24,000 bases of DNA, taken from positions 1-24,000 of the forward strand of contig NZ_JBAWSX010000014.1 in NCBI RefSeq assembly GCF_037104725.1. Direction: 5' to 3'. Position 1 is the first letter of the stretch, and every line of letters begins with the position of its first letter. Both the position numbers and the translations under genes were made by a program. Of the stretch, positions 1-22,150 are shown piece after piece. This DNA comes from Bacillus bruguierae. Lineage in GTDB: Bacteria > Bacillota > Bacilli > Bacillales > Bacillaceae_G. The notes below the pieces were generated by a model, which worked only from the letters and a program-made list of their open reading frames with translations, ran no database searches and had not been told where the DNA came from.

Positions 1-4
1 CCTC

Positions 5-268
5 CTAATGCACTAATCCTAATAGTGTATTTATTACGTCATCTTTTTGCATTGATTTTTCAATTATAATTTTCCATACTTGTTCATCTGATTCATAAAT
101 TCCTTTATTAATGTATGAATCTTTTATCTTATTAAACATACTCTCAGCTGTTATTCCAATTAGATTACAGTATTTTTTAATATTTCTTTCCTCTAAACAA
201 GCTATCCCCCAGCAGTCATATCTCCCCTTACTACAATTTTTTGCTGTAATGATTTTTATAATTTGCAA
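5..268 (-). CDS. Small ORF (87 aa, TTG start), probably the remnant of a toxin C-terminal tip
   Basis: Its TAG stop overlaps an AGGAGG. In the duplicate copy that AGGAGG is the RBS of the 149-aa gene 12097-12546 (typical toxin-immunity coupling). No convincing RBS or ATG of its own. The duplicate copy carries a nonsense codon. Confidence 0.3.
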   Translation of the reverse strand: MQIIKIITAKNCSKGRYDCWGIACLEERNIKKYCNLIGITAESMFNKIKDSYINKGIYESDEQVWKIIIEKSMQKDDVINTLLGLVH

Positions 269-832: not shown

Positions 833-852
833 GAAGACGTACAATCTTAGGT

Positions 853-1308
853 CTATTTATAATACTTGATACACCTTTCTTGAAAAGGGATTCTATCATC
901 GTGCAGCACTTCTTCTTGCAGCAATTTTGTTATATTCTCTACTTTTCCAATGAATAGTGCGAAGAAGTCGCCCGAATTTGGATATGCAAATAGTCCATAC
1001 CCCTTTGGTGACAGTATTTTGTTGACCTCCTTGATCTTTTCAGGTAAAAATTCATAATGAAATGCTTCTAATTTCTCGAGTTCTTCTTGTGTTGCTAATT
1101 CAATTTGGTGGGCAAATTCGTAATCAAGAATAAAATTGACAATTTCTTGATATTCCTCACCTTTATAGTCAACGTATAAAAACTGTTTCGTCGTCAATCC
1201 ATATTTTAATAGGTCTTCATGTAAGTCATAACTTCCTTGCTCTTTCAAAAACGTTTCCAAATCCTTGCTATCAGGAAATATAATCTGTGCTATCCCTTTA
1301 TCCGGCAT
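853..1308 (-). CDS. Hypothetical acidic 151-aa protein, second gene of an immunity-type pair
   Basis: Start moved to the ATG at 1308 (MPDKGIAQ...), preceded by GGGAGGAAG. The longer track ORF (to 1392) would overlap the upstream gene, whose stop is at 1325. No family recognised. Confidence 0.7.
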   Translation of the reverse strand: MPDKGIAQIIFPDSKDLETFLKEQGSYDLHEDLLKYGLTTKQFLYVDYKGEEYQEIVNFILDYEFAHQIELATQEELEKLEAFHYEFLPEKIKEVNKILSPKGYGLFAYPNSGDFFALFIGKVENITKLLQEEVLHDDRIPFQERCIKYYK

Positions 1309-1324
1309 ATTAGCTTCCTCCCTT

Positions 1325-2299
1325 TTATTGAAATAATTCTCCATGCTTGTTAGGAATATATTCTGGGTAGTTTTTACGATAAAATTGATCAATCATCTGA
1401 AGCACGGGATCCCATTCAGGGTATGGCTCACGTTCTGCAAATACCATTTTCGCTTCTGGAGTATTCATCAGAAAATTATCGAATTGAGTAGGTACTGGCA
1501 ACCCTAGTTGTTTCCTTACATGGATCAAGAATAAGATTTCAAAAGGATAAAATCCGTATCCGAAATCACCAAATTCACCGAACTGTCCGATTTCAGAAGC
1601 TAATGCAGAATGATACTGAGACATTATCGAAATTAGATGTTCTATTTCTTCTAAATCACCAGTCGACCAACGTTCCAGCACTTCATCATAAATGTTCAGG
1701 TCTTCAGGGATTAAGTCGCATCGCAGTTCAGCTTCCTTAAACTTATTTATCACAGTTAGATGCAATTTTTCATTCGTTCCCATGATGGTTTTATTTCTAT
1801 ACTGCAAGTACAACTCTAGCAAAAACCAAATATGTCTATCTTCTTCATTGGCATCTATTAAATGTCCACCGAAGTGATGAGTCATAAAATCATATAATAT
1901 ATTTTCTTCCTTCTCCCATCCATACATTGCAAAATGAACTAATGTGAAGACGACTTCGCTAAACAAATATTCCAAGAACATCCCTGGATACTTGCTTGTA
2001 TAGAGATCCTGTCCCATGCACTGGTAAAATAAAACCTTCTGCATGTTCTTTAATCCTTCTACATTGTTTCCACCGCTGATCAATACATCATTTTTCCATA
2101 GTGACAAGTAATATGAAGAAATTTGGTTTAGATTTATTAATAGTATGTGATCCTTCTCTGTTTCATTTTGCTCAACGATTTTCTCGTTCTCTTTTCTACT
2201 AACATTATATTTATCTTTCACATCTTCAAATTTGATTCCATCCACAAAATTTTTGCTATATCTTTTAAAAGCCATTTCTAACTTTTTTTGGTTTATCAT
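1325..2299 (-). CDS. 324-aa protein, putative immunity protein (possibly PoNi/DUF1911-like; weak recall)
   Basis: RBS GGGAGGA before the ATG. Sits directly downstream of a degraded toxin remnant. The helical, aromatic-rich C-terminal half (FYPFEILFLIHVRKQLGLP) is reminiscent of DUF1911-type immunity proteins. The family call is not verifiable by eye. Confidence 0.75.
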   Translation of the reverse strand: MINQKKLEMAFKRYSKNFVDGIKFEDVKDKYNVSRKENEKIVEQNETEKDHILLINLNQISSYYLSLWKNDVLISGGNNVEGLKNMQKVLFYQCMGQDLYTSKYPGMFLEYLFSEVVFTLVHFAMYGWEKEENILYDFMTHHFGGHLIDANEEDRHIWFLLELYLQYRNKTIMGTNEKLHLTVINKFKEAELRCDLIPEDLNIYDEVLERWSTGDLEEIEHLISIMSQYHSALASEIGQFGEFGDFGYGFYPFEILFLIHVRKQLGLPVPTQFDNFLMNTPEAKMVFAEREPYPEWDPVLQMIDQFYRKNYPEYIPNKHGELFQ

Positions 2300-2342
2300 T
2301 GCATCCTCCCTATGAATTAATCTATTTCCTTATTCCAGTTCT

Positions 2343-2733
2343 TTACCTGTAACTCATCAACACCGAATCCAATATCAGTGATCTTGATATCTGTTTCAAC
2401 TCTATTGAACTACCCCCACCTACCGTTGCGCGCTTGAGGTAGGGGTCTTCTCGCCAGATATGATAAAATCCAATTGTAGACCAGGACTCTCCTCCATCAG
2501 GTGGATCCATATTAAACACCTATTTATGGGTTATTTTACCACATTTTTGATTAGAACGGTGAATGTTCCCCCTTAATCTCATCATCCATAATCTTACCTC
2601 TCTCTAGATGATACTTATTGATAGTAACCCTTTCTTTGATTCGCTATCATCGTACCGCCTCTAGCTAGTTCAAAACCTTTGAATGCAGCTGCTATATTCC
2701 AGATTTTTATCTTTAAGCCGATCTGTTTTACAT
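2343..2733 (-). pseudogene. Degraded orphan toxin gene (TG-junction remnant plus broken tip)
   Basis: The minus-strand reading gives L-C-K-T-D-R-L-K-D, homologous at nucleotide level to the F-K-T-G-Q-L-K-D junction at 16541-16565. Short ORFs in shifting frames follow (e.g. MDPPDGGESWSTIGFYHIWREDPYLK, 2343-2510). Locally GC-richer than the surroundings. Confidence 0.45.
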
Positions 2734-3030
2734 AAACTAACTATCAGCTTGCTTATACGAATCTTTTATTTAAAATATCGGTTAAACAAATAATTTTCTT
2801 CTAAAACAAAAAAGGGCTGTTCCATAAGCAAGTAAAACCAACTTATGGAACACCCTTTTATTTTAACTATCTATTAATCATGTAATTTGTTTAAAAACTC
2901 AGTGAAGTTACTTGCCACGTAAAATACATTTTCTCTTGCTACTTCCTCTGCTTCTTCTGCTGTAATCCCTTCACTTTCCATCAGTGCTTCTTTTTCCCAT
3001 GCACCCTCATGTTCCCAAAAAACCACTATC
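2709..3030. repeat. Junction module copy 1 (partner 16541-16862)
   Basis: Near-identical stretch: TG-remnant codons, a ~80-nt spacer, the terminator hairpin and the last ~50 codons of the SUKH-1 gene. Similarity drops further into the gene. Confidence 0.85.
2814..2855 (-). terminator. Strong bidirectional-type terminator after the SUKH-1 gene
   Basis: GGGCTGTTCCATAAG ... CTTATGGAACA(-)CCC, A-run before and T-run after. This copy lacks one G in the right arm. Three copies in the window. Confidence 0.8.
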
Positions 3031-3362
3031 GGTTGGTCCCTACGACCTCTAAAATCAAAACAAATTAAGTTTCCTGCGGGATCAAATCCAATTGGAAATA
3101 ACTTACTAGGCAAGGTATCTTTATAGTCATCATAAGTTTCAAGTATAAACTCTTCACTCTCAGGATTAAAAGATAATAGTGAACCAAAAACTCTTTCAAT
3201 ACCTTCAACATCAAAAAGCATTGGTTCAACATGTCCTCCATTATTTATCGCAACACATTCTATATAGTCCATCGGAAAATCAAAACCAGTACCTTTTAAA
3301 GTTTCTTTGACATCATCTGTACTAATTTTATTATATGTATACTTCCATACTAAATTACTCAT
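2874..3362 (-). CDS. SUKH-1 (SMI1/KNR4) family immunity protein, 162 aa
   Basis: Motifs 'FPMDYIECVAINNGG', 'LLSF', 'FDPAGNLICFD' and 'VVFWEHE' are typical of SMI1/KNR4. Its ATG overlaps the stop of the WHH fragment (ATGA) with GGGGGGAG as RBS. Paralog at 16706-17194. Confidence 0.9.
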   Translation of the reverse strand: MSNLVWKYTYNKISTDDVKETLKGTGFDFPMDYIECVAINNGGHVEPMLFDVEGIERVFGSLLSFNPESEEFILETYDDYKDTLPSKLFPIGFDPAGNLICFDFRGRRDQPIVVFWEHEGAWEKEALMESEGITAEEAEEVARENVFYVASNFTEFLNKLHD

Positions 3363-5843: not shown

Positions 5844-6617
5844 TTATTTTTTAGGGGGAATTGGTTTTCCATCATTATGAATCACTTCAATTTCAATATC
5901 TGGATAATCCTTTTTAAATTGACTGATAATACTATTACAACTATCACAAGTATCTTTCTCAGTAAATAATTTTATTTTACCCTTTGCATCATGATTACCC
6001 CCTAACCGTGATGCTACATCATTTATAATCTTATACTCAGAATCTTGATCCCTTAAATAACTTACTCCATCTGCATTCTTCGCCTCTTGTGCTTCATACT
6101 TTGGGGTTTTAGGCTTTGGTGAAAATCCTTCTAAGTTCGGATTTTCACCAGCATCCTTAACTTGACTATGGGCATAAAATTCATTTTTATTTATCCCTTC
6201 AATATTTACCTCAGCGTATCCCATATTTGATCCTGATTTGTTCAGAACTCTATTTGATAGAGTTCCTTTAATCTCTGAAACTCTATTAAGAATATCAGCA
6301 TCTTTACTTGAATCAATTGATCTAGTTGGGAATCGAGAAGTCTCTCTACCACCACTCTCTTCCAACTTCGAAATCCGACTATGAATAGCCTCTTTCCTAT
6401 TTTCAAAAGTCGCTTTCACTGAACCTCTCAAGTTCGTTCCACGAAGAACTGTGTTGGCCCCACCGGCGGCGGCATCAGCAGCGTGAGCGTAGGCTAAGGA
6501 ATTATCTAGGGATTTACCAAATAATGCCCTTCTCGCCACATTAATTCCACCTGCTACACCATTTATCACCTTGATCCATTTTAAAAACATCGGAACATTG
6601 CGGCAGGAGTGGCACAA
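5844..6617 (-). CDS. Orphan deaminase-like toxin tip (paralog A), 5'-truncated by an IS3 remnant
   Basis: C-terminal '[18 protein letters not shown]...[15 protein letters not shown]...[18 protein letters not shown]' (DxE ... CxxC spacing like a deaminase core). The first ~10 codons (TTG start, [11 protein letters not shown]) are antisense to IS3-derived sequence, so there is no native start. Confidence 0.7.
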
Positions 6618-6918
6618 TCAAATGAAGAAATACCAAAATGTATTGAAAGAAAAAGGAATTACACAAAGTATGTCCCGTAAGGGGAATTATTTAGATAACG
6701 CAGTCATCGAAAATTTCTTTGGCTTATTAAAATGCTCCCTACTTTACTTACAAGAGTTCAAAAGTATGGAGCATTTTACATTAGAATTAGAAAAATATAT
6801 TCACTACTACAATAATGACCGAATTAAAACAAAATTAAAAGGAATGAGCCCTGTACAATACAGAACGCATTCCTCATTAACCGCTTAAAATATGTGTCTA
6901 ACTTTTTGGGTTCACTTC
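6600..6918 (+). mobile_element. IS3-family (IS150-like) transposase 3' fragment with right end
   Basis: '[29 protein letters not shown]...[23 protein letters not shown]' is the conserved OrfB C-terminus of the IS3 family. No N-terminal part and no left end. The terminal '...TTTTTGGGTTCA' is consistent with an IS3-type IR. Confidence 0.85.
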
Positions 6919-9537: not shown

Positions 9538-10065
9538 TTAATGCAACCCAAGCCGACGAAGCACGGCTTGGGGAGTGATAGCGATGTCTGATAAAAAGCC
9601 TTGTACCGCCTCTTTTATGGATGCTTGTGTCGGATGAAATCGGTTGGCAATAACCTGTTGTTTTAACCATTTCCACAGTCTTTCAATTGGGTTCAGATTC
9701 GGTAAATATGGAGGAAGGTATACCAACATCAGCCGCTCTTTCTGTTCATGCAAGAAGTTTTGTACAGATTTGCTTTTATGAATGCGAGCGTTGTCTGTAA
9801 CCATGACCACAAACTTATCTTTATATTGCTTTAGCACATAGAAGAGGAATGACAAAAAGTCTTCCTGTTTACAGGAAGACGCCGTCTGGTGTACTACTTC
9901 TCCTGTTTGGGCGTTTACTGTTCCAAAAACGGTTACGCTAGCATGATGACCATAAGTTGGAATCTGTTTTTGCGATCCTCGTTGTGACCAAGTAGCGTGT
10001 AGACTTTGATACGCTCGCACATGCGTCTCGTCTTGATAGAGAAGAACCATATCTTCGGTCAGCAA
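9538..10065 (-). CDS. IS630-family transposase, DDE catalytic part (orfB)
   Basis: 'LYQDETHV', 'VVMVTDNARIHKS' and 'LPPYLPNLNPIERLWKWLK' are DDE motifs of IS630/Tc1-mariner transposases. Overlaps orfA by 7 nt at the A8 run (frameshift or a broken gene). Confidence 0.9.
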   Translation of the reverse strand: MLTEDMVLLYQDETHVRAYQSLHATWSQRGSQKQIPTYGHHASVTVFGTVNAQTGEVVHQTASSCKQEDFLSFLFYVLKQYKDKFVVMVTDNARIHKSKSVQNFLHEQKERLMLVYLPPYLPNLNPIERLWKWLKQQVIANRFHPTQASIKEAVQGFLSDIAITPQAVLRRLGLH

Positions 10066-10595
10066 TTTTTTTTAATCAAAGTAATTTGATGTCGGAACAT
10101 ACGCTGTTTTTTGGGATCTGCCCTCTTGAGTGTGTAGGTCGGACGGGTATAACTTAACTTCAACCGCCAAAGCATGCGTAAAACACCTGTATTCGACATT
10201 TCTATATCATACGTACGACGCAAATATTCCTGAATGACTGGTGTAGTCCAGGACACAGCGCTTCCCAAGCCTTGATCCGTCGGTGTGCTCGTTAGAATGA
10301 TTTCTTTGAGCGCCTGTTGTTGGTCGTCCGTTAGAAAACATGCGCGTCCCGGTGCCATTTTACGCTCGAGAAGGAGGTCCATGCCACCTTCATTAAACCG
10401 TTTTACGTATTCGGAAACAGACTGGCGATGGATCCCACAAATCTCGGCTGCTTCTTTGCCCAATTTCCCTTGCATGACGAGACGCACAGCCATAATACGT
10501 GTGCGAAAAAATGCATTGCTTTCCTGTTTTTCTTGTATCCGCAAGTCAGTAATCGTAAGGTCATGTGTATTTGTAATCTTCAAACGCTTCATCAT
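10059..10595 (-). CDS. IS630-family transposase, N-terminal HTH part (orfA)
   Basis: 'RTRIMAVRLVMQGKLGKEAAEICGIHRQSVSEYVKRFNEGG' is a winged-helix/HTH region typical of IS630/Tc1. Ends at the slippery TTAAAAAAAATTG. Confidence 0.9.
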   Translation of the reverse strand: MMKRLKITNTHDLTITDLRIQEKQESNAFFRTRIMAVRLVMQGKLGKEAAEICGIHRQSVSEYVKRFNEGGMDLLLERKMAPGRACFLTDDQQQALKEIILTSTPTDQGLGSAVSWTTPVIQEYLRRTYDIEMSNTGVLRMLWRLKLSYTRPTYTLKRADPKKQRMFRHQITLIKKNC

Positions 10596-11066: not shown

Positions 11067-11786
11067 CTATGTTGTGATATAATTTTTAAATTGTTCTATT
11101 ATATCTAAACAACTTGGGCAACATTCCAATTCAGTAAACAATTTAATTTTCCCTGCTGTACTATACTCGGTTCCCAATTTATTTTGTATTTCTGAAAGTA
11201 TTTTAAATTCAGTATCAACATCCCTTAACCATGCTCCAGCTCCATCTACTACATTGTTTCCATCAACTTTTATTGCCTTTAATAAAGTTGAATCTGGTTT
11301 TATTAAAATGCCAGTTCCCTTAATACTCTCTATCTCTGCCTGTATTGCACTATGTGCAAAATATTCATTTTTAGTTATACCCTCTATAGTTACTTCAGCA
11401 CATTCAAAATTACCTTTTCCTATAGCCCATTGTGGCAATTTATTTTTATGTTTATTGATTATATTTAAGAAATTAGAATTTACCACTTCATCAAGTAATC
11501 TTATAGTAGTTTTAGCTTCTGCCACTCCCTTAGCAAGCGAAGCCTCAAGCCCTTGAATCTTACCATCCATAAACTTAGTACTCTCTGCATGATGCGTATT
11601 GACCCACTCAGTAATCTTTCCTGAGCCACCTTGTTCCCCTATCAACACACTGTCTCCAGCTGGTTTAGGCCCCTTGAAGAAGGCAAGTGTATTATCCATC
11701 CCTTGGGCCATTTTTCTGCCAAACTGATACATTTTTTCATTTCTGGATTTTCCTGTTTTTAATCCGTAAAATTCGAAATAATCTAA
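11067..11786 (-). CDS. Orphan toxin: TG-junction remnant + G-L-E-A-S-L-A block + deaminase-like tip (paralog C)
   Basis: The frame is open from 11786 (LDYFEFYGLKTGKSRNEKMYQFGRKM...), so it begins inside a pre-toxin region without an RBS. 'IQGLEASLAKG', then 'CAEVTIEGITKNEYFAHS...RDVDTEFKILSEI...KIKLFTELECCPSCLDII'. Confidence 0.75.
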   Translation of the reverse strand, partial: LDYFEFYGLKTGKSRNEKMYQFGRKMAQGMDNTLAFFKGPKPAGDSVLIGEQGGSGKITEWVNTHHAESTKFMDGKIQGLEASLAKGVAEAKTTIRLLDEVVNSNFLNIINKHKNKLPQWAIGKGNFECAEVTIEGITKNEYFAHSAIQAEIESIKGTGILIKPDSTLLKAIKVDGNNVVDGAGAWLRDVDTEFKILSEIQNKLGTEYSTAGKIKLFTELECCPSCLDIIEQFKNYITT

Positions 11787-11831
11787 TTATTATTTTACCT
11801 ACTTGAATGTTTTATCTAAACTATTTTTACA

Positions 11832-11919
11832 CTAAAACAAAAGGGGCTGTTCCATAAGCGAGTAAAACCAACTTATGGAACAGCCCTTTTATTTTGAATA
11901 CCTATTAATCACGTAATTT
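11832..11919. repeat. Partial third copy of the junction module
   Basis: Terminator hairpin plus 'TTAATCACGTAATTT', which equals the last 5 codons and stop of a SUKH-1 gene; the rest of that gene is missing. A further spacer scrap (TAATTTTCTTTCTCTAAAACA) lies at 12075-12097. Confidence 0.7.
11844..11886 (-). terminator. Terminator hairpin, copy 2 of 3
   Basis: Perfect 15-bp stem GGGCTGTTCCATAAG/CTTATGGAACAGCCC, flanked by an A-run and a T-run. Confidence 0.8.
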
Positions 11920-12096
11920 TTTTAGTTCGTATTTTACTGATTGTATTTTAAGCACCTGCTAATTGGATCGTAAACTATAATCCTGAGATCTAATTTATTT
12001 GGGACATTTATCTAGAAAATACACAAAAAATATTTGCGAACTCGTTTTATCCATTGGTAGACATTGCTATACGCGTAATTTTCTTTCTCTAAAACA

Positions 12097-12546
12097 CTAG
12101 CTTTTATTCTGTGCTTTAATTATTTCCATACCCTTCATAAATTTCTTAATAGAATCCTCATTCTTCATTAATCCACTTAAGTATAACAATGCATCAAATT
12201 CTTCAGGGTCTGCATCATAATATATCATTCCCGGATCAATAAAAGGTTCATAAACTATATTACATATATTTTGTCCCCCCATTTGTACACTAAAACATCT
12301 TTCCAATTTGGAAATATAACTATTTGTACAAATTAGATCGTCTACAGATGTTTCAAATGATTGTCCATTGTAGAAAAAAAATAGTTTGTTATCTTTAACA
12401 TAAATACCAACTACCTGTCCATCTTCGCTAAATCCTCCCACGCCTTGTCTAACTAACTGTACTTTATTTTTTTCAACTATTGAATATCCACTAGGTTCTA
12501 ATATAATATATGTGTCAATCTTAGGGTAATTATTCAGTATTATCAT
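12097..12546 (-). CDS. Hypothetical 149-aa protein, immunity-type position
   Basis: Strong RBS AGGAGGGGGAG 4 nt before the ATG. The RBS overlaps the stop of the small degenerate upstream ORF. No family recognised. Confidence 0.75.
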   Translation of the reverse strand: MIILNNYPKIDTYIILEPSGYSIVEKNKVQLVRQGVGGFSEDGQVVGIYVKDNKLFFFYNGQSFETSVDDLICTNSYISKLERCFSVQMGGQNICNIVYEPFIDPGMIYYDADPEEFDALLYLSGLMKNEDSIKKFMKGMEIIKAQNKS

Positions 12547-12558
12547 AAGCTCCCCCTC

Positions 12559-12823
12559 CTAATGCACTAATCCTAATAGTGTATTTATTACGTCATCTTT
12601 TTGCATTGATTTTTCAATTATAATTTTCCATACTTGTTCATCTGATTCATAAATTCCTTTATTAATGTATGAATCTTTTATCTTATTAAACATACTCTCA
12701 GCTGTTATTCCAATTAGATTACAGTATTTTTTAATATTTCTTTCCTCTAAACAAGCTATCCCCCAGCAGTCATATTTCCCCTTGCTTCAATTTTTTGCTG
12801 TAATAATTTTTTATAATTTGCAA
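12559..12823 (-). pseudogene. Duplicate of the small ORF 5-268, inactivated
   Basis: Relative to copy 1, a TGT codon is TGA and a 1-nt insertion lies near the 5' end. Only 44 codons remain open. Confidence 0.45.
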
Positions 12824-12825
12824 GA

Positions 12826-12860
12826 AAAAAGCACTTCTAGATTTATTAAGAAGTGCTTTT
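12826..12860 (-). terminator. Terminator after gene 12869-13255 (duplicate of 271-305)
   Basis: Same AGCACTTCT/AGAAGTGCT stem plus T-run. Confidence 0.7.
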
Positions 12861-12868
12861 ACTATTAC

Positions 12869-13255
12869 TTATTTAATATTATATTGCTCTTTAATTTTCA
12901 TCAACAACTCTTCAGTAATCTCTTTCTTTTCAGGATTTTTCCCTATATAAAATTCACATGCAGCACTTAAATATTGGTACAATTGATCATAATTCACAAT
13001 ATCGTAGTCATTATCACCATCGCCAGAATAAAATAAAACTTTATTTTGTCCAAAATACTCCTCATCATCTTGTTCATATTCACCTGAATAAATTACTCCA
13101 TTATATTCCCAACGCTCTCCCTCTTTACTTTTAAAACCTTCTAAGTGTTGTAGAAAGTTACGTCCATTTACATATATATTCAAAACATCAATAACTGCCT
13201 CTTTATTCAAATTTCTCTGTTTCATTATCTCAATAAATTCTTCATATACGTTCAT
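12869..13255 (-). CDS. Toxin-less immunity-type protein, 128 aa; paralog of 314-712
   Basis: RBS GGGTGGA. The N-terminal ~95 aa are diverged from the 132-aa paralog; the C-terminal ~30 aa are near-identical because they lie inside the 408-bp repeat. Confidence 0.7.
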   Translation of the reverse strand: MNVYEEFIEIMKQRNLNKEAVIDVLNIYVNGRNFLQHLEGFKSKEGERWEYNGVIYSGEYEQDDEEYFGQNKVLFYSGDGDNDYDIVNYDQLYQYLSAACEFYIGKNPEKKEITEELLMKIKEQYNIK

Positions 13256-13328
13256 ATTAATCCACCCAGTCTAATACTAGATAAGCATTCTCTATCTCTC
13301 TAGTTTCTGAATTTATCTTAGTTTTAAG

Positions 13329-13385
13329 GTGTAAAATATACTGTGTAAAGTTTAAGAAACGAAGCTTATGCAGTATATTTTACAC
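13329..13385 (-). terminator. Long hairpin downstream of 13442-13792 (terminator candidate)
   Basis: 15-bp perfect stem GTGTAAAATATACTG/CAGTATATTTTACAC with a ~27-nt loop. No clean T-run. Confidence 0.35.
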
Positions 13386-13441
13386 GCCCATTATATGACT
13401 GTTTTTTTATTTAACCTGTTCTGTTTCGTGTCATAAGACTA

Positions 13442-13792
13442 TTAATCATATAGACGTTTCTCTTCAATTTCATGTAAAATTTTCCCGATTCGAGAAAATA
13501 ATCCTACATATTGGTCGCGAGTTAACTCTTGTTGAATTAAATCTGAGTTTAGATGCTTGAGTGTTTCGACTAAGTTATTCTTTGAATTTCTATAGATCTT
13601 TGGCAATGATATTAGAAGTTCTCCGTAAGCAGTATAGACAATTGCCTTTTTGGATTCTGATTGGTTTAAAACTGTCTCATATTCTCCGAAAGTTCTTTCT
13701 ATCGCTTCTTCACTATCTATCTTTTCATCTTCTTTAAAATCATTATACGTTTCATTAAAATACTCAAATATTTCTTCATATGTTAATGCCAT
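13442..13792 (-). CDS. Helical immunity protein (116 aa) for deaminase-like tip B
   Basis: RBS AGGAGGG, 20 nt after the toxin stop. 'SEEAIERTFGEYE...KKAIVYTAYGELL' is homologous to both halves of 5143-5829. Confidence 0.8.
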   Translation of the reverse strand: MALTYEEIFEYFNETYNDFKEDEKIDSEEAIERTFGEYETVLNQSESKKAIVYTAYGELLISLPKIYRNSKNNLVETLKHLNSDLIQQELTRDQYVGLFSRIGKILHEIEEKRLYD

Positions 13793-13812
13793 TGATAATT
13801 CCCTCCTATTGT

Positions 13813-14373
13813 TTATGGTGATATCATATTACCATTATTGTGAACCACTTTGATTTCTATTTTGGGGTACTTTATTTTAAAGTGATTTATAACTCCATTA
13901 CAACTTGAGCATGTATCTTTTTCAGTAAACAGTTTAATCCTTCCTTGGGCATTCACATTATCACCTAATTGATTTGCAATGTCATTGAGTATTTTATACT
14001 CAGTATCAGCATCTCTTAAATATGGTTTCCCTCCATTTGAGTTAGGTGCTTCTGTAGCCTTAAATATCGGATTTTCCGGTTTAAAAGAAAAGTTTTCGGT
14101 TCCTGGAATTTTCTTTGCGGGATCATGTATTCCACTGTGCGAATAAAATTCCGACTTATTTATTCCAATAACATCAACTTCTGCATATGCAAAATTACCA
14201 GTTTCTTTAAATCTATTAGATAGACCACCTCTAGCTTCAGAAACTTTATCAAGTATATGCCCTTCTGTTTCTGGATTTACAATACGCGTTGGAAATCTAG
14301 CCCCACTACCACCCGTGGGGCGGATCTTGAACATGCAAAAAAATAAAAAACTGGGATTTTGAGCACGTAACAA
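13813..14373 (-). CDS. Orphan deaminase-like toxin tip (paralog B), 5'-truncated
   Basis: 'GGSGARFPTR...YAEVDVIGINKSEFYSHS...LRDADTEYKILNDIA...[18 protein letters not shown]', closest to paralog A. The first ~17 codons (MLRAQNPSFLFFCMFKI) come from the GC-rich scar and are not homologous. Confidence 0.7.
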   Translation of the reverse strand: MLRAQNPSFLFFCMFKIRPTGGSGARFPTRIVNPETEGHILDKVSEARGGLSNRFKETGNFAYAEVDVIGINKSEFYSHSGIHDPAKKIPGTENFSFKPENPIFKATEAPNSNGGKPYLRDADTEYKILNDIANQLGDNVNAQGRIKLFTEKDTCSSCNGVINHFKIKYPKIEIKVVHNNGNMISP

Positions 14374-14539
14374 CTGCCAGTAACCACTTGATCTCGCCCG
14401 TTACTTAGGAAGAGCTATCCGCCCTTCGGTTGTTAGGAAATACTTAGCTTCTCCACATCGTCAATCAGCGCTTTCCATGGCTCCCACATCAGCCATCTAG
14501 ATTTATTGGAATCTCGACCATCTCGGTTCGTCACTCGCA

Positions 14540-14675
14540 CATAATTATTCAAAATCTTACAAATAAACTTAATCGAGATAATTTCAGCGAGAAGGAAATT
14601 CGCCAAATTGCTAATTTTCTAAACTGTGATTTTGATGCTGTTTTTACACCTAAAGATAGTGGAGAAAAAATCTAA
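14540..14675 (+). pseudogene. 3' fragment of an XRE/HTH-type regulator gene
   Basis: 'IQNLTNKLNRDNFSEKEIRQIANFLNCDFDAVFTPKDSGEKI*' resembles the C-terminal part of small phage/XRE-like regulators. There is no start and the upstream part is replaced by unrelated sequence. Confidence 0.35.
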
Positions 14676-14806
14676 TATTAATTATAAAAGTGAGAATAAA
14701 AATAGACTGTGTCCGCTACATATCTGTAACTTACACAGTCTATCTTACACCCTCAAGAAAACACGAAAATTGTTACACATCCTTATTAGTCAATTCGATT
14801 TTTTGT

Positions 14807-15205
14807 TTAAAAATCAGATGGTAAACTCAAAATGTATTCAATCCTGCCTGTATTTTCTGTTTCTATTATGTCATAACCTCCTTTTTTTAACATTTCTTTG
14901 CACAATTCTATATCACTGCAAAGCTGATCTATATCTTTTTGATCCCTGCTATCTTCAAAATCTTCAATATTAAAGTATCCTTCCAGCCTATTGAAAATAA
15001 AATCGGCAATTTGTTTCGACTTAAGGCCCTCTAATGCAATGGATACAAAATATAAAGATTTAGTAAATGGACTATAATTCAAACGTCTCGCTTCTTCTTC
15101 TAAAATTTTTGCTGAAGCTTGTGCAACAGTTAAACCTTCCTCATCAATATACTCTTCAAATCCATATGCCACTGAGTTTTTTATTCTTTCATAACTATTT
15201 ATCAT
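14807..15205 (-). CDS. Helical immunity protein (132 aa) for deaminase-like tip D
   Basis: RBS AAGGAG, 13 nt after the toxin stop. Acidic helical protein ('LTVAQASAKILEEEARRL...SLYFVSIALEGL') with the same architecture as the other three. Confidence 0.8.
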   Translation of the reverse strand: MINSYERIKNSVAYGFEEYIDEEGLTVAQASAKILEEEARRLNYSPFTKSLYFVSIALEGLKSKQIADFIFNRLEGYFNIEDFEDSRDQKDIDQLCSDIELCKEMLKKGGYDIIETENTGRIEYILSLPSDF

Positions 15206-15218
15206 ACTATCAACTCCT

Positions 15219-15590
15219 TTATTTCATGCTATTTGTATAAATATCCAACTTAACATTTAGTAATTTTTCCCTGAATTCAAAAATTAAATTTGTACGGCTT
15301 TGACATACGTCAAAATCTGAAAATAGATGTATTTCCCCTATAATATTTGGATCTTTTATTTGTGAAGCTATATCTTCAAGAATCTTTGCTTCAGTATCAT
15401 TATATCGAGGAAATTTGTCATCTACATACGATTCAAGTGATTTAGTATCTTTGGAATGTGTAAAATCTCCGAAACTATCACCAAAGCTATCAGCAGAATG
15501 AACCTGACTATGCGCTTGATAATTAGTTTTTACACCAGGAATATTTACATCTGCCGTATGTTTGCTAACCATCATGAGTATTTGATTCAA
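15219..15590 (-). pseudogene. Truncated, probably inactive deaminase-like tip (paralog D)
   Basis: TTG start with no RBS. 'TADVNIPGVKTNYQAHS...RYNDTEAKILEDIA...IHLFSDFDVCQSRTNLI'. The second Cys of CxxC is Arg (CGT codon at 15294-15296). Confidence 0.6.
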
Positions 15591-15985: not shown

Positions 15986-16498
15986 TCACTCCTCATAGTT
16001 TTCCTCCCAATTCCAAGGCCTTCCAGATTCTATTGTTTTGTCATGAGCTGTTCTATAATTAGTCTGGAATATCCCCTCAAATTTTGATTCGAAAATTTCG
16101 TGATCCTTTATATGGGAGTTATTAAAAACATGATCTTTAATCCTTTGTATTCTAGCAACAGAAAAGCCCGTATTTTTAGCGATAGCATTCACATCTTCCG
16201 TTCCTAAATCCCTAAATTTTCCATTTACCTCTTCTGCAATAGCTTCTTCCTTGAAGAACTGCTCTGGGGATATATTTCTTCCACCAGTTTCAGCACATTG
16301 TATAGAATTACCCGTCCCCTTAGCAAGCGAAGCCTCTACACCCTCAATTTTATCATCTATAATCTTTTTACTCTCTATATGATGCTTATCAACCCAGCCA
16401 TGGAAATCTGTACCACCCTGCTTAATTGTTATTACACCATGTTCATTGATTTCAAATCTCTTGGTTTTGGCTGTCATATTATCTATGTTTTGCGGCAT
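15986..16498 (-). CDS. Orphan toxin: G-V-E-A-S-L-A block + C-terminal tip of unrecognised family
   Basis: 'DKIEGVEASLAKG', then a ~105-aa tip ('ARIQRIKDHVFNNSHIKDHEIFESKFEG...RPWNWEENYEE'). The upstream TG remnant (FKTGQLKDRKLGNDKMY) is cut off by an in-frame TAG. Confidence 0.7.
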   Translation of the reverse strand: MPQNIDNMTAKTKRFEINEHGVITIKQGGTDFHGWVDKHHIESKKIIDDKIEGVEASLAKGTGNSIQCAETGGRNISPEQFFKEEAIAEEVNGKFRDLGTEDVNAIAKNTGFSVARIQRIKDHVFNNSHIKDHEIFESKFEGIFQTNYRTAHDKTIESGRPWNWEENYEE

Positions 16499-16540
16499 TC
16501 TTTTACCAAGCTAATACATCTTGTCATTTCCAAGTTTTCT

Positions 16541-16862
16541 ATCTTTAAGCTGACCAGTTTTAAATAAACTAACTATCAGCTTACTTATACGAATCTTTTA
16601 TTTAAAATATCAGTTAAACAAATCATTTTCTTCTAAAACAAAAAGGGCTGTTCCATAAGCGAGTAAAACCAACTTATGGAACAGCCCTTTTATTTTTACT
16701 ATCTATTAATCATGTAATTTGTTTAAAAACTCAGTGAAAGTACTTGCTACATAAAATACATTCTCTCTTGCTACTTCCTCTGCTTCTTCCGCTGTAATCC
16801 CTTCACTTTCCATCAGTGCTTCTTTTTCCCATGCATCTTCATGTTCCCAAAAGACAACAATG
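16541..16862. repeat. Junction module copy 2 (partner 2709-3030)
   Basis: See 2709-3030; the offset is about 13832 nt. Confidence 0.85.
16645..16687 (-). terminator. Terminator hairpin, copy 3 of 3
   Basis: Perfect 15-bp stem GGGCTGTTCCATAAG/CTTATGGAACAGCCC, 18 nt past the SUKH-1 stop. Confidence 0.8.
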
Positions 16863-17194
16863 GGATCTTCTTCATGGTTTTTATAATCAAAGCAAATTAA
16901 ATTTCCTGCTGGATCAAAAGCAAACGGAATCAATTCTTTAGGTAATGTATCGCTGTAGTCATTATATACATCAACTATATACTCGTCACCATTTTCATCA
17001 AAAGATAACAAAGTTCCAAATACTCTTTCACGATTATTCACATTAAATAATTCTGGTTCAACATTAGCACCATTATTTATAGCTACACATTTTATATAAT
17101 CCTTTGGAAATTTGACACCTATGTCATTACCAATTTTTTTTACAAAATCTTCACTTACAGCTTCATCTGCAAATTGCCACTCTACTTTACTCAC
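16706..17194 (-). CDS. SUKH-1 (SMI1/KNR4) family immunity protein, 162 aa
   Basis: 'FPKDYIKCVAINNGA', 'LLSF', 'FDPAGNLICFDY', 'VVFWEHE'. ATGA overlap with the WHH fragment. The C-terminal 50 aa are near-identical to 2874-3362. Confidence 0.9.
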   Translation of the reverse strand: MSKVEWQFADEAVSEDFVKKIGNDIGVKFPKDYIKCVAINNGANVEPELFNVNNRERVFGTLLSFDENGDEYIVDVYNDYSDTLPKELIPFAFDPAGNLICFDYKNHEEDPIVVFWEHEDAWEKEALMESEGITAEEAEEVARENVFYVASTFTEFLNKLHD

Positions 17195-17715: not shown

Positions 17716-18177
17716 TTAAAATATTTTAGGTACCTTAGGGATACATAAACACTCGAGCATCTCTTCAGTATTATCTCCAAATTTAACTAAGCATCCATCA
17801 GTATATCCATAATATTTTTCGCTCGGTGTAATTAATAAAATTAAATTACCTCTATCTGTTTCTCCTACTGGAATTAGTTTTTCTCCAATTTCATCATTAT
17901 ATTCTTCTTCTAAATCCTGAAAATATTCACCATCTAAACAATCTCCAACTGACAGCTTAGGATTAAAATGAATATACTCTTTCATATCAAATGCTGGATT
18001 AGGATCTTGAAAAGTAATTTCCAACATTCCAAATTCAGTTAAAAACTTTTCCGCAGTTTCAAATAAACCAATTCCCCTTTCCTTAAATAAATCTTTTATA
18101 TCGTGTATATCAATCTTTCTATCTTCATACCATCCTGCATTTGTTAGTCTTTCTATTGTAATATCTGATAATTGCAT
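17716..18177 (-). CDS. SUKH-3-like immunity protein, 153 aa, cognate to the full-length toxin
   Basis: RBS AAGGAGAG, 13 nt after the toxin stop. 'LTNAGWYEDRKID...AEKFLTEFGMLEI...IHFNP...KLIPVGETDRGNLILLI...GDNTEEMLECL' fits the SUKH-3 pattern as recalled. Confidence 0.8.
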   Translation of the reverse strand: MQLSDITIERLTNAGWYEDRKIDIHDIKDLFKERGIGLFETAEKFLTEFGMLEITFQDPNPAFDMKEYIHFNPKLSVGDCLDGEYFQDLEEEYNDEIGEKLIPVGETDRGNLILLITPSEKYYGYTDGCLVKFGDNTEEMLECLCIPKVPKIF

Positions 18178-18190
18178 AAAACCACTCTCC

Positions 18191-19813
18191 TTATTCTGCC
18201 GCCTTCATAAATTCACTAAATGTAACCTTACAGTTCTTACAAAAATCTGCAAATTCTCCCGTTTTAAAATTTACAGTTCTAACAAACATATCTTCAATTT
18301 TAGCCCCATCATTAAGTGCTTGATTTACAGCCTGAATTTCTGCGCAATTGTCAACATCCCATTTTTCAAAGCTACCTTTTTCTACATACGGATTATTTAT
18401 ATCTTTTTTTGCTAAATCTTTTGTTCTTTCAATAAGTTTTTGTAAATCTTCATGTAACACTTCAGTCCTACTTGGATTAAACCCTGTTTTACCAGAATAT
18501 CCATAATATATTTTCCCTGTTTTTGTATCTACAATTGCACTTACTTTTGATGGTGCAAATTTTCCTCCTGTTGGTTTTACAATTCCTCCATTTTTAATAT
18601 ATTCAACGTGTTCTGCTAATGCAGTTTTAGAGTCATTTAATGACTTAGATATGATATCAGCATTACTTACTCCCTTACCTGAGCCAACATTCCCTATCCT
18701 CTCCGCAAGCGAAGCCTCAATCCCCTTAATCTCATCAGTCTTTGCAAATCTCCCAGCAATTTCTCCAACTGTTGAGTATTCTGAATAAGGAAGCTTTACT
18801 CCTTCTATTCCAGTATCTGCCCACTTAACTCTTACTGGAATTGGCGTATTTCCCACTGTATTTAGTGCATTTTTTAAAGTATTATTATCTCCCAACGATT
18901 GTACCACATTTTTCCCTTCATTTGGGTTAAAGCCCATTGCTCCCTCTGACGATCTTCCTAATGATCCAATATTTTGGAATCCTTTTACAATTCCTACACC
19001 ACTCGTGATAAACTCGAGGGCACCAGAAACATATCGTTCCGTCCGTTCCCCTTCACTTAATTTCCGATGTGTTCCCCAATCTTCTCCGTCAGAGGCACTT
19101 TTTACTTGGAGCCCCCCAAATATCAGTGATGCTGCAACCCCTAATGGTGGACAAATGAACGTTGCTCCAACTGTTAGAACTCCTAATCCAAAGTCACGAA
19201 ATGCCTCTAGCTGTTTTTGCTCATCCTCTATTGATCTGTATTCAAATCCTCGCGTCGAGGGAACTCGTCTTCTGTACTCTTCATAGTCTAGATTCATGTT
19301 TGGATCTCGTCTTTTCCATTCTTCATACTCCGCACGAAGAACCTCATTAAATGCCTCTGAGTCTCTGAAAATATCATCCACTGTTATTTTCGGTTTTGTT
19401 GTTGTGATGGTTTGCGGTGTGCCACCATAGCTACGTGAATCCACTATAGTTGTCGTTGTAGAACCAATTCGGTTTGTAGTCTCAAAATTTTTAATTGATA
19501 TATCTCTCATTTCTTGTGCAAAGCGATCCATTGTTTCCACAAATGGTTTGTCGATATGTTCATAGACAGCTTGCCCTGCCTGATCACAGTAGCTGTCTAG
19601 ATCTGTATAGGCATTATGTAGTTTACCGATTGTTTCAAGCTGATCTTTATGATGAAAATAAATACTTCGATCTGAATCTAGATCTTGTATCCTTTCCTGT
19701 ATATCTTTTACAAGATTATTAGCTTGGCGTAAGTTTACAAACGTATCTTTTGTGAGCTTGTTCATTCCGTCTTTCATATCTTGCCAAGCCCTTACCTTAT
19801 AACTAACATCCAT
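18191..19813 (-). CDS. Full-length polymorphic toxin, 540 aa: helical N-terminal (LXG-like) domain, pre-toxin TG-like region, YwqJ-like deaminase tip
   Basis: RBS GGGGATGGAG. N-terminal ~115 aa helical. Hydrophobic/Gly-rich 'FGLGVLTVGATFICPPLGVAASLIFGGLQV' followed by 'GEDWGTHRKLSEGER' (TG-type motif). 'IKGIEASLAE' junction. Tip has 'WDVDNCAEIQAVNQAL' ... 'FCKNCKVTF' (C-x-E ... C-x-x-C). Confidence 0.85.
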   Translation of the reverse strand: MDVSYKVRAWQDMKDGMNKLTKDTFVNLRQANNLVKDIQERIQDLDSDRSIYFHHKDQLETIGKLHNAYTDLDSYCDQAGQAVYEHIDKPFVETMDRFAQEMRDISIKNFETTNRIGSTTTTIVDSRSYGGTPQTITTTKPKITVDDIFRDSEAFNEVLRAEYEEWKRRDPNMNLDYEEYRRRVPSTRGFEYRSIEDEQKQLEAFRDFGLGVLTVGATFICPPLGVAASLIFGGLQVKSASDGEDWGTHRKLSEGERTERYVSGALEFITSGVGIVKGFQNIGSLGRSSEGAMGFNPNEGKNVVQSLGDNNTLKNALNTVGNTPIPVRVKWADTGIEGVKLPYSEYSTVGEIAGRFAKTDEIKGIEASLAERIGNVGSGKGVSNADIISKSLNDSKTALAEHVEYIKNGGIVKPTGGKFAPSKVSAIVDTKTGKIYYGYSGKTGFNPSRTEVLHEDLQKLIERTKDLAKKDINNPYVEKGSFEKWDVDNCAEIQAVNQALNDGAKIEDMFVRTVNFKTGEFADFCKNCKVTFSEFMKAAE

Positions 19814-19847: not shown

Positions 19848-20177
19848 TTACCCTTGAGGTTGTAGTTTATTATGTAATTCTTCATCCTGTTTTCTCATTT
19901 CTTCGCGAACCAGCTCTACAATGGATGCCGCTCGGTTATAATGGTCTGATAGCTCCAATATTTTATTTAATATTTGGGGATATATGTCTATGACTCTCAT
20001 CGCTTCTCCTTCAAGATAGAATTTACATTCTGCTAGACTTTTCGCATTTGTCGCTATAACACCTGTATAAATGTTATATATACTTTGAAAACGTCTTATA
20101 ATCTCTTCTATCTCATCGTAATTCATTACAATTTCTGAACTACTACTTGCACTGCCATCTCCCATTGGTACTTGCAT
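19848..20177 (-). CDS. 109-aa helical-hairpin partner protein (WXG100-like/Lap-like, no WxG)
   Basis: ATG overlaps the upstream stop (TAATG) with AGGAGGAA as RBS. Predicted two-helix protein with a central 'YLEGEA' turn. Confidence 0.8.
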   Translation of the reverse strand: MQVPMGDGSASSSSEIVMNYDEIEEIIRRFQSIYNIYTGVIATNAKSLAECKFYLEGEAMRVIDIYPQILNKILELSDHYNRAASIVELVREEMRKQDEELHNKLQPQG

Positions 20178-20908
20178 TAATGGATTCCTCCTAACGAGAA
20201 TTGTCTTGGATCGCTTATTTTCTTATACGGCATTTTTAAAACATCATATAACTTCTTATTCACCGCATACAGACTAGCCCATTCATAACGCTTACGGTCT
20301 ACTTCAATTTGAATAAAGTCTTCCCCCTCTGTAAAGTACAAGAAGCATTCCCATTTCCCGCTATCTCCTGCTCTTCGATTTCGCGGGCGAGAAAACGTTT
20401 CAATAGCTAATAGATCTTTTTCAGATAAATCCATTTCCTCGAATGTTCGCTGCTCCTTTTCTGTCATTTTCTTTGTAAAAAAAGTATCTTCGATTTCTCT
20501 TGGTTCTCGCATTAAAAACGGAATCCGTTCTAATAATGAAAAATATACATCTCGCTTCGCTATGTAATGAATTTCATATTCTTCATTTTGTTTTCGTTCT
20601 GTTAAGACAGCGACTCTATCTTTATCTTGTGGTAAAAATCCAATTAATAGATTATTAATTCGCGTATATTCTTGGCTTTCTTGATATGCCTTCAGTAATT
20701 CAATCAACTGAAAAGCCGCTGGTGTCAGTCCATTATTCTCCGTAATAAGCCCTTTCTCTTTCAACTTCACTGTCGCCTTCGTTACACATCCTTCATCAGT
20801 TAAAGTAAGAATTCCACGCTCTTGTAGGCCGAATATGTATGTAACTCCAGCTGCACCAGCTAATATGTACAGTTCAGCAGGTGTAAAGCTCCACGTATCT
20901 TTTCCCAT
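20177..20908 (-). CDS. 243-aa operon protein, candidate adaptor/chaperone (DUF5081-like by recall)
   Basis: RBS AAGGAGG. The N-terminus 'WSFTPAELYILAGAAGVTYIFGL' is reminiscent of the N-terminal motif of EspG-type secretion chaperones. No catalytic motif seen. Confidence 0.8.
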   Translation of the reverse strand: MGKDTWSFTPAELYILAGAAGVTYIFGLQERGILTLTDEGCVTKATVKLKEKGLITENNGLTPAAFQLIELLKAYQESQEYTRINNLLIGFLPQDKDRVAVLTERKQNEEYEIHYIAKRDVYFSLLERIPFLMREPREIEDTFFTKKMTEKEQRTFEEMDLSEKDLLAIETFSRPRNRRAGDSGKWECFLYFTEGEDFIQIEVDRKRYEWASLYAVNKKLYDVLKMPYKKISDPRQFSLGGIH

Positions 20909-20928: not shown

Positions 20929-21234
20929 TTACAATCTTTTTATCTTTTCCACTTCAATTCTATTTGCAAATGATTGAATGCTCTCATCCAGCTCTTTCAA
21001 GGCTTTTGTTTGTCCTTCAAGCACAGTTGCAACTTTAGCATTATACTGAATGAGCACATCTAAATAGCATAAAAAAGCATCGTTTGTTTTCCCGCTCCAA
21101 CGAGTACCTGTCACATATGATTGTAAAGCTTTAGCCTGCTCGAGCGAATCTTTCACACCCTTTTCAATTTGCTCTGCATAAGAGATGGCACTTGATATTT
21201 CACTTCCATGAATCTCAACGTCTTGACTACGCAT
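20929..21234 (-). CDS. WXG100-like small secreted/partner protein, 101 aa
   Basis: RBS GGGGGAA. Central W46-S47-G48 ('GTRWSGKTNDAF') between two predicted helices, the hallmark length and geometry of WXG100/Lap1-type proteins. Confidence 0.8.
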   Translation of the reverse strand: MRSQDVEIHGSEISSAISYAEQIEKGVKDSLEQAKALQSYVTGTRWSGKTNDAFLCYLDVLIQYNAKVATVLEGQTKALKELDESIQSFANRIEVEKIKRL

Positions 21235-21703: not shown

Positions 21704-21993
21704 ATTTGTTCCCCCTTTATTTCCTGCAAAAAAAGAAGATATTTTCCCGATAATTCCCTATCATTCTATTTTAGAATTACATTTGAAAATTTCCCCATAT
21801 AAGGAATCTTTTTTATATCGATATTTTATCAAAAACTAGCAGCTGTTTCACTATTTATTAAGATGAAATGCTTCACTATTTCTCCTCTCTTCTTTCGAGT
21901 TACAAAATAATGTGAAACTTTAATTAGTAAGGGCTTCTTCATACCTACTGATAATTAGTCCAACCAATCCGTTTTTTACAGGTAGTTGAGTAA

Positions 21994-22040
21994 AAAAGAA
22001 GATAACTCCCTACTATATAAATAGGAAGTTATCTTCTTTT
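21994..22040 (-). terminator. Terminator of the M60 peptidase gene
   Basis: 14-bp perfect stem AAAAGAAGATAACT/AGTTATCTTCTTTT with an inner mini-stem. The minus strand is followed by TTTTTT. Confidence 0.7.
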
Positions 22041-22150
22041 TGATTTCAGCAGCTTCTTTTCTGACCAATCTTGTCTTAAGAGACATGCCACGTTGTAATC
22101 GTTCACTTTTTATCGATTACATTACGAGCTGGACCACGTACTCGCCTTCA

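Follow-up and report, generated by a model that had tools for sequence, protein, structure and literature searches.

How does one and the same junction between toxin cassettes come to stand three times in a single locus, each time among different neighbours? This question is raised by the stretch of Bacillus bruguierae DNA presented above, namely the first 24 kb of contig C14 in a genome of 5.1 Mb, hereafter the window, which was analysed over its whole length. The window represents a polymorphic-toxin locus of the Bacillus cereus group with a type VII association, in which orphan toxin tips and immunity genes form a long array, the placement in the B. cereus group being suggested by the named relatives among the matched loci. 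In the direction of transcription, the junction is made up of the 3' end of a SUKH-1 immunity gene, a terminator-like hairpin, a spacer and the pre-toxin arm with which the next orphan tip opens, and its three occurrences are designated below as copies A, B and C. As developed hereafter, this block is very probably the constant junction of a modular type VII-associated toxin array, which recombines at conserved blocks.

Regarding copies A and B, positions 2709-3030 and 16541-16862 share 93.1% identity by self-BLAST, sliding identity and alignment; the shared block reported by the first-pass annotation, which was made from the sequence alone, is thus real, though calling it near-identical was slightly generous. 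The remainder of the two WHH/SUKH-1 cassettes, that is the 5' part of the SUKH-1 gene and the WHH fragment, is only moderately similar (68-72% identity), as had also been stated, so that within the SUKH-1 gene a coding 3' end of 92-93% identity adjoins upstream DNA of 68-72%. The step in identity lies at about 3020/16852, where a one-breakpoint maximum chi-square of 75.9 was obtained; none of 5000 column permutations gave a value as high, the permuted maximum being 26.1. Rather than the uniform divergence that would speak against a mosaic, a sharp step is therefore found. At the other end of the block, the identity between A and B collapses a second time at about 2720/16550, and the DNA beyond encodes unrelated tips, as was first proposed: the arm of copy A is degraded and that of copy B opens the orphan 15986-16498. 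A remnant of the arm of copy A, 'INKYHLERGKIMDDEIKG', is present at 2569-2622, and this degraded arm resembles the one found behind SUKH-1 in G005 (handles of this type designate genomes of the comparison given below).

The hairpin between gene and spacer has a 15-bp stem, perfect in copies B and C and with one bulge in copy A, and folds with -30 to -37 kcal/mol (z = -5.6 to -8.1). A simple terminator scan was blind to all three hairpins because their loops exceed its length limit, and they were found by folding. With its stem, its T run and a very stable fold, the structure resembles an intrinsic terminator, and the earlier designation of a 15-bp-stem terminator is best restricted to terminator-like, the bulge of copy A being allowed for and termination itself being predicted. 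As for the gene in front of the hairpin, both SUKH-1 proteins exceed the PF09346 gathering cut-off of 25.4, with 78.7 and 65.8 bits, and both genes are located directly behind WHH/HNH-type nuclease tips, SUKH-1 (SMI1/KNR4) proteins being immunity proteins of nuclease toxins (Zhang, Iyer and Aravind, 2011; PMC3113570). A PDB sequence search with SUKH-1 returned no solved relative.

In copy C, the hairpin region (11833-11904) is 94.4% identical to the hairpin of copy B but, in front of it, only 'K K L R D stop' is left of SUKH-1, the rest being replaced by unrelated sequence. The third copy had been described as keeping only the terminator and the last five SUKH-1 codons; both are present, but they are followed by a diverged spacer with a 15-nt deletion and by a pre-toxin arm, 11527-11924 aligning with 16317-16725 of copy B at 70-80% identity. 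This spacer contains a weak promoter-like site (TTTAGA-17-TAAAAT), and the arm leads into an orphan (11067-11732) whose tip matches Pfam Toxin-deaminase (E = 4.7e-24). The same truncated junction, in the order unrelated DNA, 'AAAAAATTAC(G/A)TGATTAA', hairpin, spacer with the 15-nt deletion and arm, also occurs in G083 and G093, which indicates that what happened in the window was an old or shared event, not a recent one. Two other copies in G093 have the spacer variant of copy C still behind a SUKH-1 3' end, and one of them has, directly before the hairpin, the last ~40 codons of SUKH-1 joined to an Imm22-like 5' part. This fusion is located at about 9780-10000 of locus L075 (G093, Bacillus sp. 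491mf, contig C51) and, judging from its sequence, may be either a chimeric immunity gene or a deletion scar. Taken together, the junction of copy C and the variants of G093 suggest that the loss of the upstream gene ends at various points before the hairpin.

Beyond the window, the comparison was extended to 71 species representatives of the genus, with one genome per species. The junction block has matches in 23 of these 71, with up to nine matches per genome, and the whole series of SUKH-1 3' end, hairpin, spacer and arm is also found in G005, G083, G084, G088 and G093, where the 5' parts are about 70% identical to copy B and the 3' ends 92-98%. The survey of related genomes that the first-pass annotation had called for thus gives a consistent picture, in which the block joins different SUKH-1 5' parts, the arm leads to different tips and breakpoints fall at the block edges. 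A contig scan with the SUKH-1 alignment gave 56 loci, a contig scan with the 540-aa (amino acid) toxin of the window as query gave no relative, and exact-protein look-ups for strain variants, performed with both SUKH-1 proteins and the WXG100 protein, returned no record.

The mosaic of the SUKH-1 genes is most apparent at synonymous sites. Among copy A, copy B and the G005 copy, the synonymous divergence (pS) is 0.57-0.63, i.e. saturated, in the first 112 codons and 0.14-0.29 in the last 50 (0.57 and 0.29 for A against B), and the non-coding 165 nt that follow the gene, with 92-94% identity, are about as conserved as the coding 3' end. In a set of 49 full-length SUKH-1 genes from the genus and other Bacillales, 37 pairs, a descriptive count, combine a pS above 0.4 in the 5' part with a pS below 0.15 in the 3' part and the opposite combination is seen in none, the breakpoints of the mosaic pairs clustering at codon columns 86-94, at the conserved DPAGNLICFD motif. 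The maximum-likelihood trees of the two parts reject each other in the approximately unbiased (AU) test, both on the 5' data (difference in log-likelihood of 2910, AU p = 2.5e-5) and on the short 3' partition (670, AU p = 1.7e-8), bearing out the phylogenetic incongruence for which a check had been suggested. Copy B illustrates this in a single gene: its 5' part is nearest to genes of the B. luti / B. wiedmannii type (pS of 0.27-0.36), which differ from it in the 3' part (pS of 0.47-0.64) and have no hairpin, whereas its 3' part is nearest to G083 (pS of 0.07), G084 and G005, whose 5' parts are saturated and ~70% identical.

A second block of the window concerns the CdiI_4 genes 314-712 and 12869-13255, the 132/128-aa paralogs that had been announced as having a homogenised 3' end and a diverged 5' part. 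Such is the case, as their 5' parts are about 40-60% identical while, from 410/12965 to the contig end, the identity rises to 97-100%, the first 221 nt being exact. In a four-way comparison with G093, the 5' parts of orthologues are 94-100% alike and those of paralogues ~45%, but all four genes agree at 94-100% in their last ~130 nt. Downstream, the likeness of the two window copies (92-100%) extends into the next gene for ~39 codons, whereas the DNA that follows the 128-aa orthologue in G093 is unrelated, the switch being located at the end of the conserved 3' block; over the block, the G093 orthologue is 86-98% identical to either copy of the window. This comparison points to a rearrangement breakpoint at the block edge and to a recent exchange in the window's own lineage. 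Position 1 of the window is itself a contig end inside the 221-nt exact CdiI_4 repeat (window 1-257).

The last element of the junction, the pre-toxin arm ('...GKVTEWVN.RHAES.KFMDGKIQGI/EASLA'), is kept in 15 cassettes, taken from the window and five other genomes, each of which then leads into an unrelated tip, which makes EASLA the boundary between constant and variable sequence. EASLA junction sites are located in the window at 18689-18737, 16313-16355 and 11517-11565, and further ones in loci L071, L072, L073 and L076. Most arms belong to headless orphans, with 58-121 codons of open frame upstream, and only some stand behind a hairpin. As arms also occur without it, the recycled cassette boundary of the first-pass annotation corresponds to two separately conserved parts placed end to end, namely the 3' end of the WHH/SUKH-1 cassette (SUKH-1 3' end, hairpin and spacer) and the general 5' EASLA arm of orphan tips. 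The label TG formerly given to the arm and its remnant had to be abandoned: PT-TG has no match in the window at E <= 0.01, the only match (E = 0.025, sub-threshold) lying further upstream in the G005 toxin, and the best Pfam match of the copy B arm is Nuc_N, at E = 1.6e-4 and below the cut-off.

Arms of orphans match each other at 80% identity, and window positions 6348-6574 reach 95% identity with the linker in the full-length G005 toxin. This 651-aa protein (L035:8202-10157) bears a complete Colicin-DNase/WHH tip, with the domain at residues 544-646, and is followed by SUKH-1, hairpin, spacer and degraded arm. Such an intact, ancestral layout indicates that cassettes A and B of the window are truncated and displaced versions of a former primary tip, the WHH tip being carried by the full-length toxin in G005 and present as an orphan in the window, which is a feature of tip replacement. 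The toxin operon of G005 is only ~68-70% identical to that of the window, while the neighbouring genes (window 846-2380) are 95% identical.

In the mechanism proposed here, the constant block would extend, in the order of transcription, from the last ~52 SUKH-1 codons through the 15-bp-stem terminator-like hairpin and the ~90-nt spacer to the arm of the next orphan ending in EASLA, and the variable, specificity-bearing parts between constant blocks would be the toxin tip together with the ~110 codons with which its immunity gene begins. Homologous recombination would start in the constant blocks, between cassettes of one array but also, after DNA transfer, between arrays of different strains or species. 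As a result, variable parts would enter new combinations and cassettes would be deleted, duplicated or displaced. Exact identity runs on which strand exchange could take place amount to 45 nt (A-B), 52 nt (B-C) and 221 nt (CdiI_4 pair). Recombination between conserved flanks, as the first-pass annotation had envisaged, is supported by the sharp mosaic, the incongruence of the trees and the re-use of the block; from these patterns we infer homologous recombination, presumably of the RecA type, together with the direction and timing of single events. That the perfect 15-bp hairpin would itself be active in cassette turnover, as a structure-specific break, template-switch or recombination site following a logic similar to that of integron attC, is a speculative and very improbable addition. 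If true, it would account for the persistence of the hairpin where the preceding gene was lost, and cassettes would be gained preferentially at the hairpin rather than by general homology.

While recombination would account for these observations, conserved ends could in principle also result from selection only, with the SUKH-1 C-terminus, the terminator and a regulatory spacer being constrained and no recombination taking place. Over all pairs of the 49 homologues, the median non-synonymous divergence (pN) is indeed 0.16 in the 3' part against 0.30 in the 5' part, which designates the C-terminal ~50 residues, conserved across genera, as a protein framework under purifying selection, and the very stable hairpin as well as the promoter-like site of the copy C spacer could be taken as regulatory. 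The median pS, however, is equal in both parts (0.65 in 5' and 0.66 in 3'), meaning that there is no general constraint on synonymous sites, and many hairpin-less relatives with the same protein C-terminus have only 82-88% DNA identity; together with the incongruent trees and the one-sided count of mosaic pairs, this renders selection without recombination very unlikely. Somewhat closer to the data, though still unlikely, is concerted evolution restricted to the genome, in which gene conversion or segmental duplication would have acted recently and genomes would have exchanged nothing with one another. It would agree with the CdiI_4 copies, whose 100% identity over 221 nt is above that to the G093 orthologue, and with the hairpin and spacer, for which A and B are mutual best matches (93.9%), but it fails for the coding 3' end of SUKH-1, where A and B are 92.4% identical against 98.1% for B and G083, 96.8% for B and G084 and 95.5% for A and G005. 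In addition, the truncated junction of copy C is common to G083 and G093, and the multiple block copies within G084, as well as those within G083, do not group by genome. The homogenised 3' end of the first-pass annotation is consequently to be kept for the CdiI_4 block and given up for the SUKH-1 coding end, whose copies, being closer to those of other species, indicate no homogenisation within the genome; judging from these identities, exchange appears to have occurred both within and between genomes.

Two further explanations concern the nature of the repeats. A small mobile or site-specific element, similar to a miniature inverted-repeat transposable element (MITE) or to attC and inserting between cassettes, would fit the perfect 15-bp stem, the symmetric A and T runs, the persistence of the hairpin where the preceding gene was lost (copy C) and the hairpin-only copies of G083 and G093. 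Genome-wide, however, the block is confined to the locus, matches elsewhere being limited to two weak hairpin-like ones (43-52 nt, ~81% identity); target-site duplications were not seen, the hairpin block has no Rfam family, and the window contains no site-specific recombinase but only IS630 and an IS3 remnant, so that this possibility is highly improbable. A MITE or dispersed repeat was accordingly rejected, all real copies being in this locus. Repeats made or collapsed by the assembler might likewise be suspected, as the window starts at a contig end inside the CdiI_4 repeat, whose copies are 98-100% identical there, with a 127-nt overlap with contig C20; yet the three copies lie in a single contig with differences of 5-7%, and other species, assembled independently, show orthologous arrangements, so that an artefact is extremely improbable. 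Coming back to the block as a recombining constant junction, several points weigh against it. At the protein level, strong conservation of the C-terminal ~50 residues reaches as far as Listeria and Terribacillus, and selection hence contributes to the pattern; the mosaic pairs are kin sharing alleles and not independent, for which reason their count is to be read descriptively; the 3' partition comprises about 50 codons with ~28 synonymous sites; and the genomes compared belong to different species, each represented once. Besides, the orphan arms have 71-76% DNA identity, over 49 nt, to the full-length toxin of their own locus, and the switching of tips onto the present main gene therefore looks inefficient.

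Table 1. Position of the blocks, their parts and the leading genes of the locus in the window.
Feature	Position	Strand	Remarks
Copy A, SUKH-1 3' end, last ~52 codons of gene 2874-3362	2874..3030	-	Pfam SMI1_KNR4, E = 7.6e-18
Copy A, terminator-like hairpin, 15-bp stem with one bulge, flanked by A run and T run	2802..2873	-	-29.8 kcal/mol, z = -5.6; 94.5% identical to copy B
Copy A, spacer	2709..2801	-	92.5% identical to copy B spacer
Copy A, degraded pre-toxin (EASLA-type) arm, 50-bp deletion and frameshifts	2560..2708	-	
Copy A, truncated WHH/Colicin-DNase nuclease tip, 69 aa	3359..3568	-	Pfam WHH, E = 5.6e-8
Copy B, SUKH-1 3' end of gene 16706-17194	16706..16862	-	Pfam SMI1_KNR4, E = 7.6e-22
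Copy B, terminator-like hairpin, perfect 15-bp stem	16634..16705	-	-37.2 kcal/mol, z = -8.1
Copy B, spacer	16541..16633	-	Sliding identity and alignment
Copy B, pre-toxin arm ending EASLAKG	16313..16540	-	5' part of orphan tip 15986-16498; aligns with copy C arm
Copy B, truncated WHH nuclease tip, 68 aa	17191..17397	-	Pfam WHH, E = 2.2e-6
Copy C, hairpin and last five SUKH-1 codons	11833..11924	-	Folding -36.2 kcal/mol
Copy C, variant spacer (15-nt deletion) and pre-toxin arm ending EASLAKG	11517..11832	-	5' part of deaminase orphan 11067-11732
EASLA junction within full-length 540-aa toxin gene 18191-19813	18689..18737	-	Repeat family D6
CdiI_4 block copy 1, 3' end of gene 314-712 and downstream DNA to contig end	1..410	-	97-100% identical to 12555-12965
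CdiI_4 block copy 2, 3' end of gene 12869-13255, intergenic DNA and first ~39 codons of 12097-12546	12430..12965	-	
M60-like peptidase	22151-23560	-	
WXG100 gene, small operon	20929-21234	-	
DUF5081 gene, same small operon as WXG100	20177-20908	-	
Full-length toxin, 540 aa	18191-19813	-	
SUKH-3 immunity gene	17716-18177	-	Follows 540-aa toxin

As regards the gene content of the locus (Table 1), nearly every gene of the window is on the minus strand. The 540-aa toxin belongs to no Pfam or NCBIfam family and has neither an LXG nor a toxin domain in these, and NCBIfam provides no name for its partner genes; the neighbouring WXG100 and DUF5081 genes are what suggests its type VII association. Its C-terminal part contains C-x-x-C motifs, the SUKH-3 gene coming next, and an EssC-like frame of 1507 aa is found on another contig of the genome. 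Towards lower coordinates, SUKH-3 is followed by the array of headless toxin tips and immunity genes, namely two WHH and SUKH-1 pairs, four Toxin-deaminase tips or fragments, two of which have Imm3 behind, an EndoU fragment with a CdiI_4-like gene, two CdiI_4 genes, an Imm22 gene, an IS630 copy and an IS3 remnant (IS, insertion sequence). The deaminase tips or fragments 15219-15590 and 11067-11732 are each followed by a small gene without family assignment, and the immunity families encountered downstream of the 540-aa toxin are thus SUKH-3, SUKH-1, Imm3, CdiI_4 and Imm22.

Several observations can be added on the array and its surroundings. In G093, the window segments 14695-15555 (98.6%) and 13312-13969 (99.2%) are directly adjacent (L075 8285-8287), the 725-nt piece 13970-14694, which includes the 5' part of the deaminase tip 13813-14373, being present in the window and absent from G093; this breakpoint lies outside the studied blocks. 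The IS630-type transposase (9538-10595) consists of two overlapping frames, and the IS3-family fragment (6571-6888, plus strand) adjoins the 5' end of the deaminase orphan 5844-6617. A 50-nt inverted repeat, 88% self-complementary, is located at 21993-22041 between the M60-like peptidase gene and the toxin operon, and an Rfam search of the window gave no family. The end of contig C20 overlaps exactly with window 1-127, and C20 (G000:C20:56813-76812) extends the array by at least 12 kb with more immunity-type genes, among which are one that is paralogous to 12097-12546 and encodes 153 aa, CdiI_4-like genes (140 and 136 aa) and several for ankyrin-repeat proteins.

Orphan modules of the cdiA-CT/cdiI and rhs-CT types, whose junctions are VENN or PxxxxDPxGL, have reportedly been described, in work attributed to Poole and colleagues in 2011 and to Koskiniemi and colleagues in 2014. 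As in these orphan-cassette systems, a full-length toxin is followed here by headless pairs of tip and immunity gene that keep a constant pre-tip stretch, in this instance the EASLA arm, whose boundary role is comparable to that of VENN in CdiA. Unlike them, the present system is type VII-associated and Gram-positive, its junction is EASLA and not VENN, and a second constant block resides in the 3' end of the immunity gene, so that the immunity genes themselves are chimeras. With respect to the SUKH-1 family as such there is no family-level difference, the novelty residing in the mosaic by which, at the DNA level, a conserved 3' end is combined with a variable 5' part.

The cassette logic of polymorphic toxins, including the strings of immunity genes that build up behind the toxin gene, was set out by Zhang et al. 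(2012; PMC3482391), and the former tips displaced downstream of the toxin conform to that model. Also comparable are the blocks of high identity in esaG of Staphylococcus aureus and tipC of Streptococcus, which include 3' flanking DNA and recombine with one another (Garrett et al., 2022; PMC9484751), as well as the lpl genes cited therein, where the exchanged stretch starts in the 3' part of a gene and runs through the intergenic DNA into the 5' part of the following one. In both situations, diverged immunity paralogues are found downstream of a type VII toxin, with identity blocks at the gene ends and in the 3' flank, breakpoints at the blocks and variable parts presumed to bind the toxin, the CdiI_4 block having the same layout. 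The differences lie in the families, which are SUKH-1 and CdiI_4 rather than DUF600/EsaG or TipC, in the genus, in the mixed array of unrelated toxin and immunity types, and in a block to which a terminator-like hairpin and the pre-toxin arm of the following orphan also belong; moreover, copy-number change between close strains is a feature of the esaG and tipC arrays, the comparison made here being one between species, with a rearrangement breakpoint at the edge of the CdiI_4 block. The concept is therefore a known one, through both the esaG/tipC blocks and the orphan cassettes, and what is added is its occurrence in SUKH-1 and CdiI_4 genes, in a mixed array, with a block of hairpin and arm, and in a genus-wide view.

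Concerning the biology of these bacteria, the locus offers a base-pair view of how the large and heterogeneous toxin/immunity arsenal of the B. cereus group is assembled, and extends the homology-block model from the single-family arrays of esaG and tipC to a mixed one, with EASLA named as the tip-junction motif of the toxin family. Annotators and assemblers should be aware that short-read contigs are interrupted at such blocks, position 1 of the window being an example, and that chimeric immunity genes arise from them. For the SUKH-1 proteins, it is predicted that the last ~50 residues would be interchangeable, whereas specificity would reside in the first ~110.

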